From Acidocella sp. 20-57-95 (lineage in GTDB: Bacteria > Pseudomonadota > Alphaproteobacteria > Acetobacterales > Acetobacteraceae), in assembly GCA_002255575.1 (NCBI GenBank), contig NCAT01000003.1:126341-190340 (forward strand): a stretch of DNA of 64,000 nt, given 5' to 3'. The notes under the pieces are model-generated. The model did no database searches. It worked only from the letters and a program-made list of their open reading frames with translations, and had not been told where the DNA came from. Shown in pieces: positions 5,005 through 45,591 of this stretch. The first letter of the stretch is position 1. The number at the start of each line of letters is the position of its first letter. Made by a program: the position numbers and the translations under genes.

Positions 5005-6318
5005 ATGCCCCATACGGCAACCAGCAAAAACATCGGCAGCGCCACGCTGAGCTATAACGGTAAAACGGCAACTCTCCCTGTGTTGGAAGGCTCAATGGGG
5101 CCCGCCGTTGCCGATATCCGCAAAATCCAGGGTGATTTGGGGGTTTTCACCTTCGACCCTAGCTTCGGTGCCACCGCCTCCTGTGAAAGCTCGATCACCT
5201 ATATCGATGGTGATGAAGGCGTATTGCTCTATCGCGGTTACCCGATCGACCAGCTGGCCGAACATTCAACTTTCCTCGAAGTTGCGCATTTGCTGCTGTT
5301 CGGGAACCTGCCCACCACCGCTGAACTGGATCATTTCACCCACGGCGTCACCATGCACACCATGTTGCATGAGCAAATCCGCCGCTTCTGGGATGGGTTC
5401 CGCCGCGATGCCCACCCGATGGCGATGCTCTGCTCGGTCGTTGGCGCCATGTCTGCCTTCTACCCGGACAGCATCGATATCAACGACCCGCGCCAGCGCG
5501 AAATCAGCGCCTACCGGATGATCGCTAAAATCCCTACCATCACCGCCTGGGCGCATAAATACAATGTTGGGCAGCCCTTCATGTATCCGCGCAATGATCT
5601 CAGCTATTCTGAGAACTTCCTCTACATGTTCCATGCTGTGCCGCCGCAAACCTATGTGCCGAACCCGATTCTCACACGCGCCATGGACCGCATCTTCATC
5701 CTGCACGCCGACCATGAGCAGAACGCCTCGACCTCCACGGTGCGTCTGGCCGGCTCCACCGGTGCCAACCCATTTGCCTGCATCGCCGCCGGCATCGCCT
5801 CACTCTGGGGTCCCGCCCATGGGGGTGCCAATGAGGCCGTGCTGAAAATGCTCGCCGAGATTGGCCATAAGGACAATATCCCGGCCTTTATAGCGCAGGT
5901 GAAAGACAAGAACTCCCATGTCAAACTGATGGGCTTTGGCCACCGGGTTTACAAAAACTTTGACCCGCGCGCGAAAATCATGCAGCGCACCTGCTACGAA
6001 GTGCTCGGCGAACTTGGCATCAAGAACGACCCGATGCTCGACCTGGCCATCGAGCTTGAAAAAATCGCCCTCGAAGACCCCTACTTCGTCGAGCGCAAAC
6101 TCTACCCGAACGTGGATTTCTACTCAGGCATCATCCTGAAGGCGATGGGCTTCCCCACCACCATGTTTACCCCCATCTTCGCGCTCGCCCGTACCGTCGG
6201 CTGGATCAGCCAGTGGATGGAAATGATCGAAGACCCGCAACAACGCATCGGCCGCCCCCGGCAGGTATACACCGGCGCCCCAACCCGCGACTACGTGCCC
6301 ATCGATAAGCGGGGCTGA
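5005..6318 (+). CDS. gltA: Citrate synthase (type II)
   Basis: [35 protein letters not shown]. Confidence 0.98.
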
Positions 6319-6348
6319 TGCTCAAGGGGTTGGGTTGGTGGGGTTGTG

Positions 6349-6538
6349 AAGAAAGGCCAAGGGGCTCTGCCCCTTGGAACCCCGCTAAGGGCGCGGCCCT
6401 TAGAACCTTTAAGGTTAAGAAAAACGGGCGCGCCGCGGTGTTGAAACACCAATGGACGCCCGTTTTTTTTAACCTTCAAAAATGGTTTCCAAAGGCGAGC
6501 CTTTGGCGGGGTCCAGGGGCAGAGCCCCTGGCCTTCTT
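6349..6538. repeat. Composite palindromic element, copy 1 (MITE/RPE-like)
   Basis: Imperfect inverted arms of about 57 bp, each with two hairpins, around a long central hairpin; homologous to 16205-16369. Confidence 0.85.
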
Positions 6539-6568
6539 AACCGTCCTACCAACCAACCCTCCTCGAGC

Positions 6569-7624
6569 ATGACCCGTTCATCGGGCACCATGGCGCGGTT
6601 GCTGCGCTGGCTGGCGGAGTCGCCAGCGCGGAATTTGGTGTTTGGGCTGGTTTATATGGTGGTTGTCGTTGCGGGGGCGACGGCGGCTTATGTAGCGGAT
6701 GGCTGGAGCTGGGGGGATGCGTTTTACTTCGTCATCATTACGGTATTTACGGTCGGCTATGGTGAGCTTCACCCGGTTGCGACGTTTGACCTGCGTTTTA
6801 TTACCATTGCCACGATTATTTTGGGCTGTACGGGGATTATTTTTCTCACCGGCGCGCTCGTGCAGTTCATTACCATTGCACAGATTCAGCTTTTGCTGGG
6901 AACCAAACGAATGAAAACGCAGATCGAAAAGATGGCTGGCCATGTGATTATTTGTGGCTATGGGCGTATTGGCCAGATGTTGGCCGATGAGTTGAAAGCG
7001 GGCGGCACTGAATTTGTGGTGCTGGAGTTAAATGAGCAGCGTTTTCATGAATCGGTGGCGGCGGGCAACCTGACAGTTCGCGGCGATGCGACTGACGAGA
7101 CGGTTTTGCATTCGGTTGGCATCGCAAAGGCGCGGGCATTGGCGAGCGTCGTGCCGAATGATGCGGCGAATGTGTTCATTACCTTATCGGCGCGCAACTT
7201 AAATAAACAGTTGGAAATTATCGCGCGCAGCGAGGCCCCGAGTACCAAAAGTAAATTGCTGCAAGCGGGCGCCAACTCAGTGGTGGAGCCCACCCATATT
7301 GGGGCCGAGCGGATTGCGCAGCTTATTATTTTTCCGCGCACATCATCATTCACTGATGGCTCGGACCGGATGCGCACACTGGGGATGGGGTTGCGCACGC
7401 TGGGGCTGGATTTAGAGGTGATGGCGGTGGCGGCCGATAGCCCCCTAGCGGGCGCCACCATTGAAACCGCTGAACATCAGGCAAGCGGCAGTGTGTTCGT
7501 GATTGCAGTGAACCGTAAAAATGGCGAAACCCTTACCCGCCCTGACCCCGCCACCATTATTGAAGCGGGCGACGGCGTGGTTGTTATTACCCGGTCTGGA
7601 CGCAGCACCCCGAAAATCAGCTAA
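6569..7624 (+). CDS. Potassium channel with TrkA-N/TrkA-C (RCK) domains
   Basis: Two TM helices around TVFTVGYG filter, ICGYGRIG RCK motif; start 6569 or 6590. Confidence 0.9.
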   Translation: MTRSSGTMARLLRWLAESPARNLVFGLVYMVVVVAGATAAYVADGWSWGDAFYFVIITVFTVGYGELHPVATFDLRFITIATIILGCTGIIFLTGALVQFITIAQIQLLLGTKRMKTQIEKMAGHVIICGYGRIGQMLADELKAGGTEFVVLELNEQRFHESVAAGNLTVRGDATDETVLHSVGIAKARALASVVPNDAANVFITLSARNLNKQLEIIARSEAPSTKSKLLQAGANSVVEPTHIGAERIAQLIIFPRTSSFTDGSDRMRTLGMGLRTLGLDLEVMAVAADSPLAGATIETAEHQASGSVFVIAVNRKNGETLTRPDPATIIEAGDGVVVITRSGRSTPKIS

Positions 7625-8776: not shown

Positions 8777-8806
8777 GTAAGGCCAGGGGTTATGCCCCTG
8801 GCCTTA
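8777..8806. repeat. Collapsed copy of the palindromic element; probable bidirectional terminator hairpin
   Basis: TAAGGCCAGGGG-TTATG-CCCCTGGCCTTA between convergent genes; first 13 nt identical to 16205-16217. Confidence 0.7.
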
Positions 8807-13416: not shown

Positions 13417-15590
13417 AGCCCGTTAATATTGAACTCGCGAAATCCTTTGGTCTGAACGCTGAGGAATACGCCAAGGTCCTCGAAATTATGGGCCGCACGC
13501 CGAGCTTTACCGAGCTTGGTATATTCTCGGTGATGTGGTCGGAACATTGTTCCTATAAATCTTCCCGCGTCTGGCTGAAAACCCTGCCGACCAAGGCACC
13601 CTGGGTGATCCATGGGCCGGGCGAAAATGCCGGCGTGATCGATATCGGTGAGGGTCTGGCGGCGATTTTCAAGATGGAATCGCACAACCACCCCAGCTTC
13701 ATCGAGCCCTACCAGGGTGCAGCCACCGGTGTGGGTGGCATTTTACGAGATGTGTTCACTATGGGCGCCAGGCCGATTGCGAACCTGAACGCCTTACGTT
13801 TTGGCGACCCAAAACTGCCGGTTACCAAGCGCGTGGTGGATGGCGTGGTGCGCGGCATTGGCGGCTACGGCAATTGCGTCGGCGTGCCGACCGTGGGTGG
13901 TGAGGTGAATTTCCACCCCGCCTATAATGGCAACCCGCTGGTGAACGCCATGACGGTTGGTATTGCCGCGACTGATAAAATCTTTCTCTCGGCGGCGGCT
14001 GGCATCGGCAACCCCGTTGTGTATGTCGGCTCCAAAACCGGCCGGGACGGTATTCATGGCGCGACCATGGCCAGCACCGAATTTGATGCCAATTCCGCTG
14101 AAAAGCGCCCGACCGTGCAGGTGGGCGACCCGTTCACCGAAAAACTCCTCATCGAAGCCTGCCTGGAACTGATGCAGACCGACGCGATTGTGGCGATCCA
14201 GGATATGGGTGCGGCTGGCCTCACGTCCTCATCCGTCGAAATGGCCGGCAAGGGTGGCGTGGGCATTGAACTGACGCTCGATAATGTGCCGCAACGTGAA
14301 ACCGGCATGACTGCCTATGAGATGATGCTCTCGGAAAGCCAGGAGCGGATGCTGCTGGTGCTCAAGCCCGAGCGTTCCGACATGGCGCGCGCGATCATTG
14401 AGAAATGGGATTTGGATTACGCCATTATCGGTAAGATCACAGATACGGGGCGCATCGTCATCACCCATAAGGGCGTGGTAGAAGCTGATATTCCGCTGGC
14501 ACCATTATCGGATGAAGCGCCGCTGTATCATCGCCCGATTATTGAAACACCAAAGCCCGCACGACTCCGCGAAACGCATGACCCGGTTGGTTTTGAGGTG
14601 GCGTTGTTGAAACTGATCGGCTGCCCGGATCTCGCCTCGCGCCGTTGGATTTTCGATCAGTATGATTCCACCGTGGGCGGCCAGACAGTAAAACGCCCGG
14701 CGCAGGCTGATGCCGCCATCGTGCGGCTGGAAGGTACCAACCGTGCCTTAGCGATCACGACTGATTGCACGCCGCGGTATTGCGCGGCGGACGCTGAAGC
14801 TGGTGGTGCACAAGCCGTCGCAGAAGCCTGGCGCAATATTACCGCCACCGGCGCCGTGCCGCTGGCGGTGACTGACAATATGAATTTCGGCAACCCGGAA
14901 AAGCCCGAGATCATGGGGCAATTTGCCGCCGCCATTAAAGGGATGGGTGCGGCCTGTCTGGCGCTCGATTTCCCGGTCGTGTCCGGCAATGTCTCGCTCT
15001 ATAATGAGACTGAAGGCAAAGCGATTTTGCCAACGCCTGCCATCGGTGCAGTTGGCGTATTGGCAGACGTTTCGCTTGCCACCGGCATTGCCATCGCGCC
15101 TGGGCAGGAACTGGTCCTGATCGGTGAAACCAAGGGTGAGCTTGGCCAATCGCTGTGGCTGCGGGAAATCCTGGGGGCGGAAGACGGTGCGCCGCCGGAA
15201 GTTAACCTGCTCAATGAACGCGAAAATGGCGATTTCGTACGGGCCCAAATCCTCTCCGGCGCCGTCAAAGCCTGTCATGACCTCTCCGATGGCGGCCTCG
15301 CCGTCGCCCTCACCGAAATGGCGCTGGCGGGTGACACCGGCATCATTTTGCACCCCGCCCCGCCGCATTTGCCCGCCCACGCCTATTGGTTTGGCGAAGA
15401 CCAGGCCCGCTATGTTCTGGCGGTTACCAACCCGCATGACATCCTCACCGCCGCCCACGCGGCCGGCATTCCGGCACGGCATATCGGCCACACCGGCGGT
15501 AACAGTTTGACACTTGCGGGCAGCAACTCCATATCTTTGGCTTCCCTGCGCGACGCCAATGAGGGCTTCTTTCCCGCCTGGTTCGCCTAA
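13413..15590 (+). CDS. purL: FGAM synthase subunit PurL
   Basis: [38 protein letters not shown]. Confidence 0.97.
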
Positions 15591-15854: not shown

Positions 15855-16193
15855 ATGGACAACCCCGTCTTCGCCGAAATTCAGTCCTACATCGACTCCT
15901 CGCCGGTCATGCTGTTCATGAAAGGCACACCGATGTTCCCGCAGTGCGGCTTCTCCGCCCGGGTCATCCAAATCCTCAAACATGCCGATGTGCCCTTCAA
16001 AACCGTCAACGTGCTCGAAAACCCCGAGGTGCGCGAAGGCATTAAGGAATTCTCCAGCTGGCCAACCATCCCGCAACTCTACGTCAAAGGGGAGTTCATT
16101 GGCGGCTGCGATATCATCACCGAAATGTACCAATCCGGCGAGCTGCAAACGCTGCTAACGGAAAAAGGTATCTCCCATAACGCGGCTGCCTGA
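15855..16193 (+). CDS. grxD: Monothiol glutaredoxin
   Basis: PQCGFS and WPTIPQLY. Confidence 0.96.
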   Translation: MDNPVFAEIQSYIDSSPVMLFMKGTPMFPQCGFSARVIQILKHADVPFKTVNVLENPEVREGIKEFSSWPTIPQLYVKGEFIGGCDIITEMYQSGELQTLLTEKGISHNAAA

Positions 16194-16204
16194 GTGGCGG
16201 CTAG

Positions 16205-16369
16205 GTAAGGCCAGGGGCTCTGCCCCTGGACCCCGCCAAAGGCTTAGCCTTTGGAATCAATTTGTAGGGACTAAGAAAACCGGGTGCGCCGAGGTGTTGA
16301 AACACCATTGGGCACTCGGTTTTTTTAATCTTGGCGGGGCCCAGGGTTGGCGCTCCTGGCCTTCCTTAC
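16205..16369. repeat. Composite palindromic element, copy 2 (right arm partly deleted)
   Basis: GTAAGG...CCTTAC termini, the same two-hairpin arm and the same central GGTGTTGAAACACC hairpin as 6349-6538. Confidence 0.85.
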
Positions 16370-16391
16370 CGGCACTCAAGACACCCGCCTT

Positions 16392-17633
16392 ATGAGACTT
16401 GCCTTCATCACCGATGAGTTGCCGCGGGCGGGGGTGGCCGGGCATTTGGCGTTTAATGCGGCGGTAACCCATTGGCTGCGGGCGCAAGGGCACGAGGTTG
16501 TGGTTGTGTTGGTACGGCCCCGCCTGAGATGGCCGGTGGAGCGGTTTATAAATGGGGCAGTGGTTGGGCCGGGGGTGGTTTATTGGGATGGCCGGGTGAT
16601 TTGTTGGGGGCCGCGTCATATCGCAGCCATTCTGGCCAAGCGGGCTTTGGCGTCGTTGCCGACATGGTTGGGCGAGATGCTGCGCACCCGTGGGCGGGGA
16701 CCACGTTATGGCATTGTCGATGCGATTTTGGGGGCTTTTTTAACGCCAGTGCAGGTTCGGTGGTGTGCGGACAAGCTGACAGCATTACAACCTGATGCGG
16801 TGCTGGTGGATACGATTTTCCGCAGCCCGGTGCTGGATGACCCACAGATTTGCCGAATGCGCCGTGTTATATTCACGCATGATTTGTTTCACCAGCGACA
16901 CCGCATTTTGGCGAGTGCGGGGTACCGCCTACATCCGGCAGAACTCTCGCGTGAGATGGAAGCGGTTTATTTAAATAAGGCGGATGTGATTTCGGCGATC
17001 CAGCCGGCTGAGGCGGCTGAGATCCGCACCATGTGCCCCAACCGGCAGGTGATTGTGAACCCCATGCCAGCGATCCCCTGCCCGCGCCCGGCGCATGTGC
17101 AAAGGCGGTCTGAGCGTCTGGTGTTTATTGGTGGCGATACGCTGCCCAACCGGGATGGTTTGCTGTGGTTCTTTGAGGAAATATGGCCGCGTTTGCGCAG
17201 TTGGCGCGCCACAGTGACATTGGATTTAGTGGGCGATTGCATTCAAAGTTTGCGATCCGTGCCGACAGGGGTTCATAGGGTTGGCCGGGTGCCCGATTTA
17301 GCCCGAATACTTCACGAGGCCCGTTTGGCGATATCCCCTTTACGTGTCGGCTCCGGGCTCAAGCTGAAAATTCTCGATTATGCCAGGCATGGCTTGAGAA
17401 CTGTGGCCACCCCAATGAGCCTAGAAGGTTTTGCGGACGACCCCCAGGCGCCCTTCATCACGGCGTCTGACAGTCTCGCATTTTCCGAGGCCATCCAAAG
17501 ATACCTTGCGGCGCTTGTATCAATTACGGATGAAGCGGAAGCCTTGCGGTATGTTGAACGCCATTACGGTATCGACAAATCATTCGGAAGCTTGACTGCG
17601 TATCTGGCGGCACCGATCAGACAGACGGTTTAG
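16392..17633 (+). CDS. Glycosyltransferase family 4 (GT-B)
   Basis: MRLAFIT start, LVFIGG..PNRDGLLWF, GSGLKLKILDY. Confidence 0.8.
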   Translation: MRLAFITDELPRAGVAGHLAFNAAVTHWLRAQGHEVVVVLVRPRLRWPVERFINGAVVGPGVVYWDGRVICWGPRHIAAILAKRALASLPTWLGEMLRTRGRGPRYGIVDAILGAFLTPVQVRWCADKLTALQPDAVLVDTIFRSPVLDDPQICRMRRVIFTHDLFHQRHRILASAGYRLHPAELSREMEAVYLNKADVISAIQPAEAAEIRTMCPNRQVIVNPMPAIPCPRPAHVQRRSERLVFIGGDTLPNRDGLLWFFEEIWPRLRSWRATVTLDLVGDCIQSLRSVPTGVHRVGRVPDLARILHEARLAISPLRVGSGLKLKILDYARHGLRTVATPMSLEGFADDPQAPFITASDSLAFSEAIQRYLAALVSITDEAEALRYVERHYGIDKSFGSLTAYLAAPIRQTV

Positions 17634-26208: not shown

Positions 26209-26248
26209 AAAAAGGCGACGACCCATAATCTGGGTCGTCGCCTTTTTT
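26209..26248. terminator. Intrinsic terminator, probably bidirectional
   Basis: AAAAAGGCGACGACCCA-TAATC-TGGGTCGTCGCCTTTTTT. Confidence 0.88.
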
Positions 26249-34811: not shown

Positions 34812-34888
34812 CGGAGCGTAGCGCAGCCTGGTAGCGCACCAGTCTGGGGGACTGGGGGCCGTGGGTTCGAATCCCGCCGCTCCGACCA
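34812..34888 (+). tRNA. tRNA-Pro (GGG)
   Basis: CGGAGCG acceptor stem, CCAGT/ACTGG anticodon stem with CTGGGGG loop, GTTCGAATC T-loop, encoded CCA. Confidence 0.96.
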
Positions 34889-45502: not shown

Positions 45503-45529
45503 AAAAGGGGGCCTTGCGGCCCCCTTTTT
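45503..45529. terminator. Bidirectional intrinsic terminator
   Basis: AAAAGGGGGCC-TTGC-GGCCCCCTTTT between convergent acnA and queF. Confidence 0.88.
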
Positions 45530-45567: not shown

Positions 45568-45591
45568 GTCATACCCGCGCAGGCGGGTATC
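45568..45591. repeat. Half copy of a GTCAT-type palindromic element (REP/RPE-like)
   Basis: GTC-ATACCCGC-GCAG-GCGGGTAT-C resembles the recalled GTCATTCCCGCG(N)GCGGGAATC motif. Confidence 0.5.

Follow-up and report, generated by a model that had tools for sequence, protein, structure and literature searches.

A nested mosaic of palindromic repeats at gene 3′ ends in Acidocella: a probable REP/BIME-like DNA element around an exchangeable, terminator-like hairpin

The spacer behind the citrate synthase gene gltA of Acidocella sp. 20-57-95 is filled by a large palindrome, a further copy of which follows the glutaredoxin gene grxD. Both copies lie in a stretch of 64,000 nucleotides of contig NCAT01000003.1, hereafter called the window, copy 1 at 6319-6568 and copy 2 at 16197-16373. 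The element is probably a nested mosaic of noncoding DNA repeats akin to repetitive extragenic palindromic (REP) sequences and bacterial interspersed mosaic elements (BIMEs), in which structure-dependent hairpin modules form inverted arms around an exchangeable central hairpin. In this species the centre resembles a terminator, and the whole would be tolerated at the 3′ ends of genes, where it is probably useful, rather than being the gene of a specific RNA. The repeat is multi-copy with layers that differ in copy number, its hairpins covary with respect to both stem and tail, it is present or absent and its core is exchanged at orthologous sites, and its arms have no strand bias. It stands outside every named family and is a new family among the known interspersed palindromic repeats.

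An earlier note on the window, the original prediction, had described two copies with a shared layout of inverted arms around a long central stem with an identical cap, GGTGTT-GA-AACACC. Reading of positions 6200-6700 and 16100-16500 bore this out, except that the right arm of copy 2 lacks the B′ module and is reduced to a single degenerate hairpin. Every pair-preserving difference that had been listed between the copies was correct, both in the central stem (an A-T pair that becomes C-G, a C-G pair that becomes T-A and one G-T wobble) and in the arm hairpin, where CTAAGGGC/GCCCTTAG is replaced by CCAAAGGC/GCCTTTGG. The flanks of copy 1 are indeed inverted with respect to each other, and the entire spacer folds as one hairpin that reaches from just past the gltA stop codon to just before the next start codon. 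The predicted RNA fold of copy 1 has an energy of -163.8 kcal/mol (z-score -13.9), which none of 200 shuffled sequences reached, and that of copy 2 has an energy of -114.9 kcal/mol (z-score -8.4). The arm motif occurs six times in the window, where 0.01 matches are expected. The cores of the two copies share 85% identity over 61 nt, and the reverse complement of the right arm of copy 1 is identical to the left arm of copy 2 over approximately 35 nt, while it is unlike the left arm of its own element. The latter observation points to exchange between loci and argues against a recent local inverted duplication. The "compensatory" changes between the copies may in part be swaps of whole, pre-formed module variants rather than the result of stepwise compensation.

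The element had been regarded as a single composite, a description that had to be replaced by one of nested layers of unequal copy number. In metagenome run X1 the unique flanks were covered about 58x, the core 354x (about 6 times the flank), the B region about 500-670x (about 9-11 times) and the A region 1500-1850x (about 25-30 times); these are approximate values, obtained by summing the depths of contigs that aligned at a likeness of at least 80%. Loose contig ends revealed that other copies of the core are also flanked by B modules and that the outer CA-rich flanks recur beside other copies. The outer left flank of copy 1 is itself single-copy, at about 58x in contigs selected at the same likeness. 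When one genome per species was scanned with GGGGCNNNGCCCCTGGNCCCCGC, at least 120 loci were returned, and about 90 among the loci listed belong to Acetobacteraceae, Rhodospirillales or related alphaproteobacteria. The genera carrying arms include Roseomonas, Acidiphilium, Siccirubricoccus, Rhodovarius and Teichococcus, and most loci begin with RRGNAAGGCC. Where both arms can be recognized, the central hairpin that they bracket varies from locus to locus. The central hairpin of the window was found only in this species, its cap being missing from all loci of other species examined; the 29 matches to the core in a scan of metagenomes were all unrelated chance matches. A distant-mode search of a plasmid database gave one arm match of 34 nt, on a Pseudoroseomonas plasmid without annotation. 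In the viral collection IMG/VR, 16 of the 18 matching contigs (L157-L174; GC content 62-73%) carry a typical AAGGCC-A-B arm, and these are presumably phages or prophages of Acetobacteraceae.

The pattern used in the genome scan left the sequence beyond the A tail unconstrained. Even so, a perfect hairpin of at least 6 bp begins exactly after the A tail in 112 of 131 arms, with 40 different stems, as compared to one of 131 in shuffled sequences. In an ungapped alignment of 39 arms, 96.5% of the cells of hairpin B are paired (slid controls, 19-60%), and seven of its eight pairs have changed on both sides, in a total of 70 cells; none of 500 shuffles matched this. The covariation noted between the two copies thus persists in a larger sample.

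A second regularity concerns the 5-7 nt that follow each hairpin on its 3′ side, which mirror the 3′ half of the hairpin's own stem. Examples are ACCCCG after GCCCCTGG, AACCCCG after GCCCCTTGG, AAACC or AATCC after GCCTTTGG, ACTCCC after GCCCTCTGG and AACCT after GTCCTTAG. The rule that a stem G is answered by a tail C and a stem A by a tail A or T holds at 474 of 646 positions in 135 distinct modules that were not forced by the search; shuffling gave a mean of 317 with a standard deviation of 10, and 474 was reached in none of 2000 shuffles. Per position, G is found with C 71 to 96 times, and A with A or T. In a pair-counting approach the relation amounts to 71.8%, an understatement because A-A was scored there as unpaired. 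Pairing of the tail with the next module, or replacement of the 5′ stem half by it, was ruled out, as the tail is a mirror and neither a direct nor an inverted copy. A stem-mirroring tail of the same kind is present in loci of high-GC Clostridia/Bacillota and Desulfovibrio-like bacteria (L007, L010, L014, L021, L043, L055, L077 and others), where the rule is followed at 58 of 63 and 33 of 36 positions for Bacillota and Desulfovibrio-like bacteria, respectively. One such module reads CCAGAGGGC...GCCCTCTGG-ACTCC, and locus L043 contains four matches with a spacing of 24 nt.

On the G-rich strand, a module has the order leader, CC, purine half, loop and pyrimidine half, with G.G-C, A.A-T and T.A-T as the triads that it allows. 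In sequence, such an arrangement corresponds to a class I intrastrand purine-motif triplex on that strand and to a class III triplex on the C-rich strand (PMC4666352). Whether read from one strand or the other, the modules may be able to form such triplexes, although the 2-nt turn also base-pairs and the run of triads is short. Tracts that are rich in GT and in runs of G adjoin the arms, at 6319-6352 of the window (GGGGTTGGGTTGGTGGGG) with its partner at 6536-6568 and at 11560-11640 of the relative L127 (GGGGGGTTGGGGGGGGGTTGTTGGGGGG); judged by their sequence, these could form G-quadruplexes.

Gene order around gltA is kept in four relatives (L124, L125, L126 and L127), which allowed the same site to be compared between them. 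In the window, the gltA-trkA spacer is 250 nt long and contains arms and core. In L127 (GltA 92% identical; spacer 334 nt), the same asymmetric arms and spacers surround an unrelated central hairpin of 59 nt. L125 (88%; 137 nt) has the arrangement A-B-spacer-A′ without a core, the spacer of L124, the sister of L127 (92%; 72 nt), holds a CGTC-tagged REP hairpin only, and L126 (88%; 56 nt) has no element at all. The grxD site is empty in L125, with a spacer of 22 nt. Empty sites, which had been named in the original prediction as something to look for, thus occur in the relatives both at gltA (two of them, L124 and L126, lack the arm/core element there) and at grxD (L125). The window and L127 have in common a left B module of the C[G/T]AAGGGC type, a right B module of the CCAAAGGC type and the spacers TTAAGG and CCTYAAAAATGG; the left spacer of copy 1 is kept in L127 as CTTAAGG and the right one as CCTCAAAAATGG. 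The L127 ortholog of the left B module of copy 1 is CGAAGGGC-ACA-GCCCTTCG, in which a T-A pair has been changed to G-C. In the right A module, an extra A-T pair in one of the two is accompanied by an extra A in the tail, a three-way change that is most simply explained by replacement of the whole module.

The genes around the arms were delineated with a crude caller based on GC content at third codon positions, which makes some errors, so that the following counts are approximate. Clusters of arms lie in 30 convergent, 51 co-directional and nine divergent spacers, and the arm has the same direction as the gene in 25 cases and the opposite direction in 19, from which it follows that the arms are enriched at the 3′ ends of genes and have no strand preference. 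Pairs of arms that are 0.5-3.5 kb apart enclose ordinary genes, identified by eye from translated open reading frames (ORFs) as encoding a class D beta-lactamase, a threonine dehydratase, an M3 peptidase and a histidine kinase. No autonomous element was found between such pairs in the 8-kb pieces around arms that were fetched.

The core has the build of an intrinsic terminator, with a stable GC-rich hairpin directly before a U-tract, and probably terminates transcription. Core 1 has a predicted folding energy of -28.8 kcal/mol on the plus strand and -27.1 kcal/mol on the minus strand and is followed by U8; for core 2, followed by U7, these energies are -34.5 and -23.1 kcal/mol. The folds on the minus strand are weaker because G-U pairs become C-A mismatches there. 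Ordinary terminators of the window (26209-26247 and 45503-45528) share the build of A-tract, stem and T-tract. A simple terminator scan missed the cores owing to their internal loop, and the sites that it reported were no more numerous than in shuffled sequences.

On the basis of these observations, the element can be described as having two layers. In the first, an arm is a tandem of an A and a B module, both GC-rich hairpins with tails that mirror their stems, located mostly at gene 3′ ends, either singly or as inverted pairs. The second is a hairpin at the apex between inverted arms, which in this species is a family of its own, of approximately six copies, built like a two-way intrinsic terminator. 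Modules would persist or spread only if they are able to fold as single strands, through structure-specific recognition in a copying step at the DNA level; such recognition would account for the self-complementarity of all variants. Dispersed homologous arms would recombine or undergo gene conversion with each other, whereby cores and whole modules would move among loci and give rise to the seemingly compensatory differences. The U-tract hairpin of the core would end the gltA and grxD transcripts in place, and the arm hairpins upstream of it may act as additional barriers to 3′ exonucleases.

A number of observations weigh against this interpretation. Spacers that contain the element differ over their whole length from those that do not, and neither a clean insertion boundary nor a target-site duplication is visible. 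A transposase or RAYT (REP-associated tyrosine transposase) bounded by the same termini, for which the original prediction had proposed to look, or any other cognate full-length element or mobilizing enzyme was not found in the fetched loci of about 1 Mb around arms, a sample that was not designed for this purpose and in which RAYTs were not sought genome-wide. The copy numbers on which the distinction between the layers is based are approximate, as stated above. Both cores have the orientation of the genes upstream of them and fold better on the plus strand by means of G-U pairs, which hints at some selection on the core at the level of RNA. The central hairpins in other species are without U-tracts, so that terminator activity is not general to the family. 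Weak support for termination, on the other side, comes from Acidiphilium rubrum, in which metatranscriptome contigs cover both flanks (10-15x) of a similar element between co-directional genes, but not its centre, although DNA runs of the isolate contain the centre as a unitig of 108 nt. As a sign of termination this gap is suggestive only, since it coincides with assembly breaks induced by the repeat and with GC-rich hairpins that sequence poorly.

The palindromes could also have grown in place, without any mobility, if a terminator sequence prone to form hairpins or triplexes provoked template switching and repair and thereby symmetrized its own spacer. The palindrome of copy 1 extends into single-copy flanks and spans the whole spacer, the spacer has been remodelled between species with 92% identical GltA proteins, and in E. 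coli loci with triplex motifs are hypervariable and have a "palindrome effect" (PMC4666352). This explanation is nevertheless unlikely: near-identical arms at many unrelated loci in many genera require copying between loci, and the two arms of copy 1 are built from different module variants, an asymmetry that is kept in L127, so that the right arm is no recent inverted copy of the left one. The outer CA-rich flanks, moreover, recur near other copies and could themselves belong to the family in degenerate form. A dedicated cis-acting RNA element, be it a stabilizer or terminator module in the 3′ untranslated region (UTR) or a small RNA derived from it, in which selection would act on the folded RNA and leave the repeats in the DNA as a by-product, would account for several features, namely the position of both copies after stop codons of plus-strand genes with the core in the same orientation, the better fold of the sense strand of the core, especially in copy 2, the strong covariation of the hairpins and the preponderance of convergent over divergent spacers. 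The structured RNA or 3′ UTR module that had originally been suggested is not favoured, however, and seems quite improbable, as arms occur in both orientations without bias, the same site is without the element in close relatives and the core has been swapped for an unrelated hairpin. In addition, termination at the core would leave the right arm untranscribed, yet this arm is kept as well as the left one, and the code that relates stem and tail is most consistent with a purine-motif triplex of the G-rich strand, a structure reported not to form in RNA (PMC4666352). Searches of the elements against Rfam gave no family at or above its gathering threshold (best scores of 11-24 bits as compared to thresholds of 43-162) and nothing relevant at permissive cut-offs.

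A classical miniature inverted-repeat transposable element (MITE), with the arms as terminal inverted repeats for a DDE or HUH transposase whose gene lies elsewhere and with the composite moving as a unit, is very improbable. Inverted arms at both ends, the existence of several composite copies (approximately six cores, most of them flanked by B modules), presence or absence among relatives and arms on 16 viral or proviral contigs would all be expected of it. However, no direct repeat is present beside either copy and the sequence outside the arms is itself inverted, the depth of the A hairpin is about five-fold that of the core, and arms occur singly and in many combinations. Furthermore, an arm resembles arms of other loci more closely than its partner in the same element, and arm pairs that are 0.5-3.5 kb apart enclose ordinary genes. 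The part of the original prediction in which a repeated, structure-preserving palindrome of the REP or MITE type was envisaged is supported.

A bolder and unlikely extension of the REP/BIME-like reading is that the modules are selected as a hairpin plus a third strand, by a grammar common to Alphaproteobacteria, Bacillota and Desulfovibrio-like bacteria, and that inverted pairs of them serve as homology "handles" with which recombination exchanges terminator hairpins between gene 3′ ends. If so, hairpins bracketed by handles would be portable terminators that spread without a transposase. Three-way covariation of the 5′ stem half, the 3′ stem half and the tail in several phyla bears on the question of whether triplex motifs are selected or are a mere source of instability. 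The conserved arms with different centres at one orthologous site make exchange of terminators between loci a testable proposition. For genome annotation, the repeats are of practical relevance: in Acetobacteraceae they take up a large share of the intergenic sequence at gene 3′ ends, where they may be confused with small RNAs or short ORFs.

The features of the window and the CGTC-tagged hairpins are collected in Table 1.

Table 1 Parts of the two copies of the element, and other palindromic repeats, in the window and in relatives
Feature	Position	Strand	Description
Copy 1 outer left flank	6319-6352	.	GT-rich (GGGGTTGGGTTGGTGGGG...), inverted with respect to 6536-6568; paired in the fold
Copy 1 left module A	6353-6384	+	AAGG, hairpin CCAAGGGGC-TCT-GCCCCTTGG (6357-6377), mirror tail AACCCCG (6378-6384)
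Copy 1 left module B	6385-6407	+	Hairpin CTAAGGGC-GCG-GCCCTTAG (6385-6403), tail AACC
Copy 1 left spacer	6408-6414	.	TTTAAGG; AAGG part pairs with CCTT at 6474-6477
Copy 1 core	6415-6473	+	Terminator-like hairpin; A-tract 6420-6424, stem CGGGCG/CGCCCG, T8 6463-6470
Copy 1 core cap	6437-6450	+	GGTGTTGAAACACC, i.e. GGTGTT-GA-AACACC
Copy 1 right spacer	6474-6483	.	CCTTCAAAAA(T)
Copy 1 right module B′ (inverted)	6484-6506	-	Leader GGTTT, hairpin CCAAAGGC-GA-GCCTTTGG (6489-6506)
Copy 1 right module A′ (inverted)	6507-6535	-	Leader CGGGGT, hairpin CCAGGGGC-AGA-GCCCCTGG (6513-6531), CCTT
Copy 1 outer right flank	6536-6568	.	CA-rich, inverted copy of 6319-6352
Solitary A-type hairpin	8778-8806	.	TAAGGCCAGGGG-TTATG-CCCCTGGCCTTA; without tail or B module
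Copy 2 left arm	16197-16259	+	GGCGGCTAGGTAAGG, A, ACCCCG, B, AATC
Copy 2 left hairpin A	16211-16229	+	CCAGGGGC-TCT-GCCCCTGG
Copy 2 left hairpin B	16236-16254	+	CCAAAGGC-TTA-GCCTTTGG
Copy 2 core	16272-16330	+	TAAGAAAACCGGGTG...cap GGTGTTGAAACACC (16293-16306)...CACTCGGTTTTTTTAA
Copy 2 right arm	16335-16373	-	Leader CGGGGC, degenerate A′ (CCAGGGTTGGCGCTCCTGG, 16341-16359), CCTT, CCTTACCGGC
CGTC-tagged hairpin, window	45571-45590
CGTC-tagged hairpins, L124	11332-11351, 13895-13914, 17686-18780
CGTC-tagged hairpin, L127	6280-6299

The proposed identities of gltA and grxD were correct: gltA, encoding citrate synthase (PF00285), is followed by the gene for the TrkA-type channel, and grxD, which lies after a BolA gene, encodes a glutaredoxin of 112 amino acids (PF00462). 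The CA-rich right flank of copy 1 stops one base short of the ATG (6569) of the channel gene, upstream of which a Shine-Dalgarno sequence is not visible. The solitary A-type hairpin is located between convergent genes of the OYE and CYTH/CHAD types; it has a folding energy of -25.3 kcal/mol (z-score -4.5) and 12 bp, which correspond to an outer AAGGCC stem plus the A stem, and possibly represents the arm/core element in a minimal or collapsed state. The sequence of the window is identical to contigs of three metagenome-assembled genomes of one species, its citrate synthase is 84-85% identical to proteins of Acidocella species, and its DNA is present in metagenome runs from acid mine drainage and aquatic environments; among RNA runs, none was found that contains the organism. 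In the window as a whole, only a tRNA gene at 34812-34885 exceeds the gathering threshold of an Rfam family.

Two other families of palindromes were encountered in the same genomes. An unrelated second one consists of CGTC-tagged REP hairpins of the form cgtcATNCCCGC-GNAG-GCGGGNAT-c..., which fit the CGTC class described for Alphaproteobacteria; in the gltA 3′ spacer of L124 such a hairpin stands in place of the arm/core element. Elsewhere in L124 (17686-18951), three PurS ORFs are arranged in tandem with a period of 536 nt, each unit being bounded by the same two CGTC-type hairpins, which reflects either REP-mediated tandem amplification or an assembly artefact. In L125 (14935-17765), purQ and purL are each broken into two or more ORFs, probably as a consequence of frameshift errors in a long-read assembly. 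A third, AT-rich repeat, GGTTCTTTTTT-TC-AAAAAAGAACC, fills 3′ spacers of L126 (6978-7001, 13645-13666, 17373-17396 and 17473-17494), with a looser AT-rich hairpin at 13545-13567, which suggests that different lineages fill the same niche with different palindromic families.

The suggestion that the element might be unnamed has stood up: no Rfam family matches it, and an exact-sequence search of the open-access literature gave no paper. It has neither a GTAG nor a CGTC tag, its arms do not co-evolve as the doublet of a REPIN does, no target duplication of the MITE kind accompanies it and it departs from the TMECO consensus, so that it was assigned to no named family. It is nevertheless similar to the REPs and BIMEs of enterobacteria and pseudomonads, including the GTAG- and CGTC-tagged REPs (Di Nocera et al. 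2013, PMC3733652), in that these are short, GC-rich, multi-copy extragenic palindromes, located mostly downstream of genes or between convergent ones, singly or in inverted clusters with conserved linkers, and variably present between relatives. REPs are defined as multi-copy, extragenic palindromic units of 20-40 bp, and the modules described here are hairpins of 18-21 nt plus tails. The arrangement A-B-spacer-centre-spacer-B′-A′ is a mosaic of the BIME type, and the window has its linkers ACCCCG, TTAAGG and CCTYAAAAATGG in common with L127. The feet of the hairpins differ from the tagged REPs, being AAGG-CC..., CCCCG-CC... and ...GG-ACCCC, as do the stem-mirroring tail, the exchangeable central hairpin within an inverted pair and the fact that no RAYT is linked to the units. 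True CGTC-tagged REPs of the same genomes, such as those of the window and L124 (Table 1), are a separate family. REPINs (Bertels and Rainey; RAYT, PMC5581495) likewise consist of two inverted palindromic units around a more variable centre and can form one long hairpin, but in the present element it is the local hairpins that are conserved and not the long-range pairing, and its arms differ within an element instead of forming a co-evolving doublet. The most widely distributed group of RAYTs (Group 1) is reported to be rare in Alphaproteobacteria (PMC5581495).

Bacterial MITEs such as Correia/NEMIS, RPE, ERIC and Nezha resemble the element in their size of 150-250 nt, inverted termini, long transcript hairpin and dispersed intergenic copies. 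They differ from it in that neither a target-site duplication nor a cognate insertion sequence was found for it, the flanks continuing the palindrome, and in its modular layers at different copy numbers. Its core shares with intrinsic terminators an A-tract, a GC-rich stem of -29 to -35 kcal/mol, seven to eight U residues and a location 100-150 nt past the stop codon; in contrast to these, the candidate terminator described here belongs to a repeat family of its own, has a conserved cap and lies between inverted arms. The sequence of the modules is unrelated to the TMECO consensus, CCCTCNCCC-N3-6-GGGNGAGGG-N3-GGGNGAGGG with a stem of nine triads, and the modules further differ from TMECO in class (class II there, as compared to class I or class III here), in number of triads (nine and five to seven, respectively) and in having a turn of 2 nt (CC/CT) that also pairs with the 3′ GG/AG. 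Even so, the BoxC/PIT/TMECO motifs (Hoyne and Maher 2000; Holder et al. 2015, PMC4666352) share with them three consecutive blocks on one strand, here in the order reverse-Hoogsteen, purine and pyrimidine on the G-rich strand, with G.G-C and A/T.A-T triads, and they too are GC-rich, multi-copy and often palindromically arranged, at loci that are remodelled between close relatives. More than 500 GC-rich motifs have been reported in a Rhodospirillum genome (PMC4666352).

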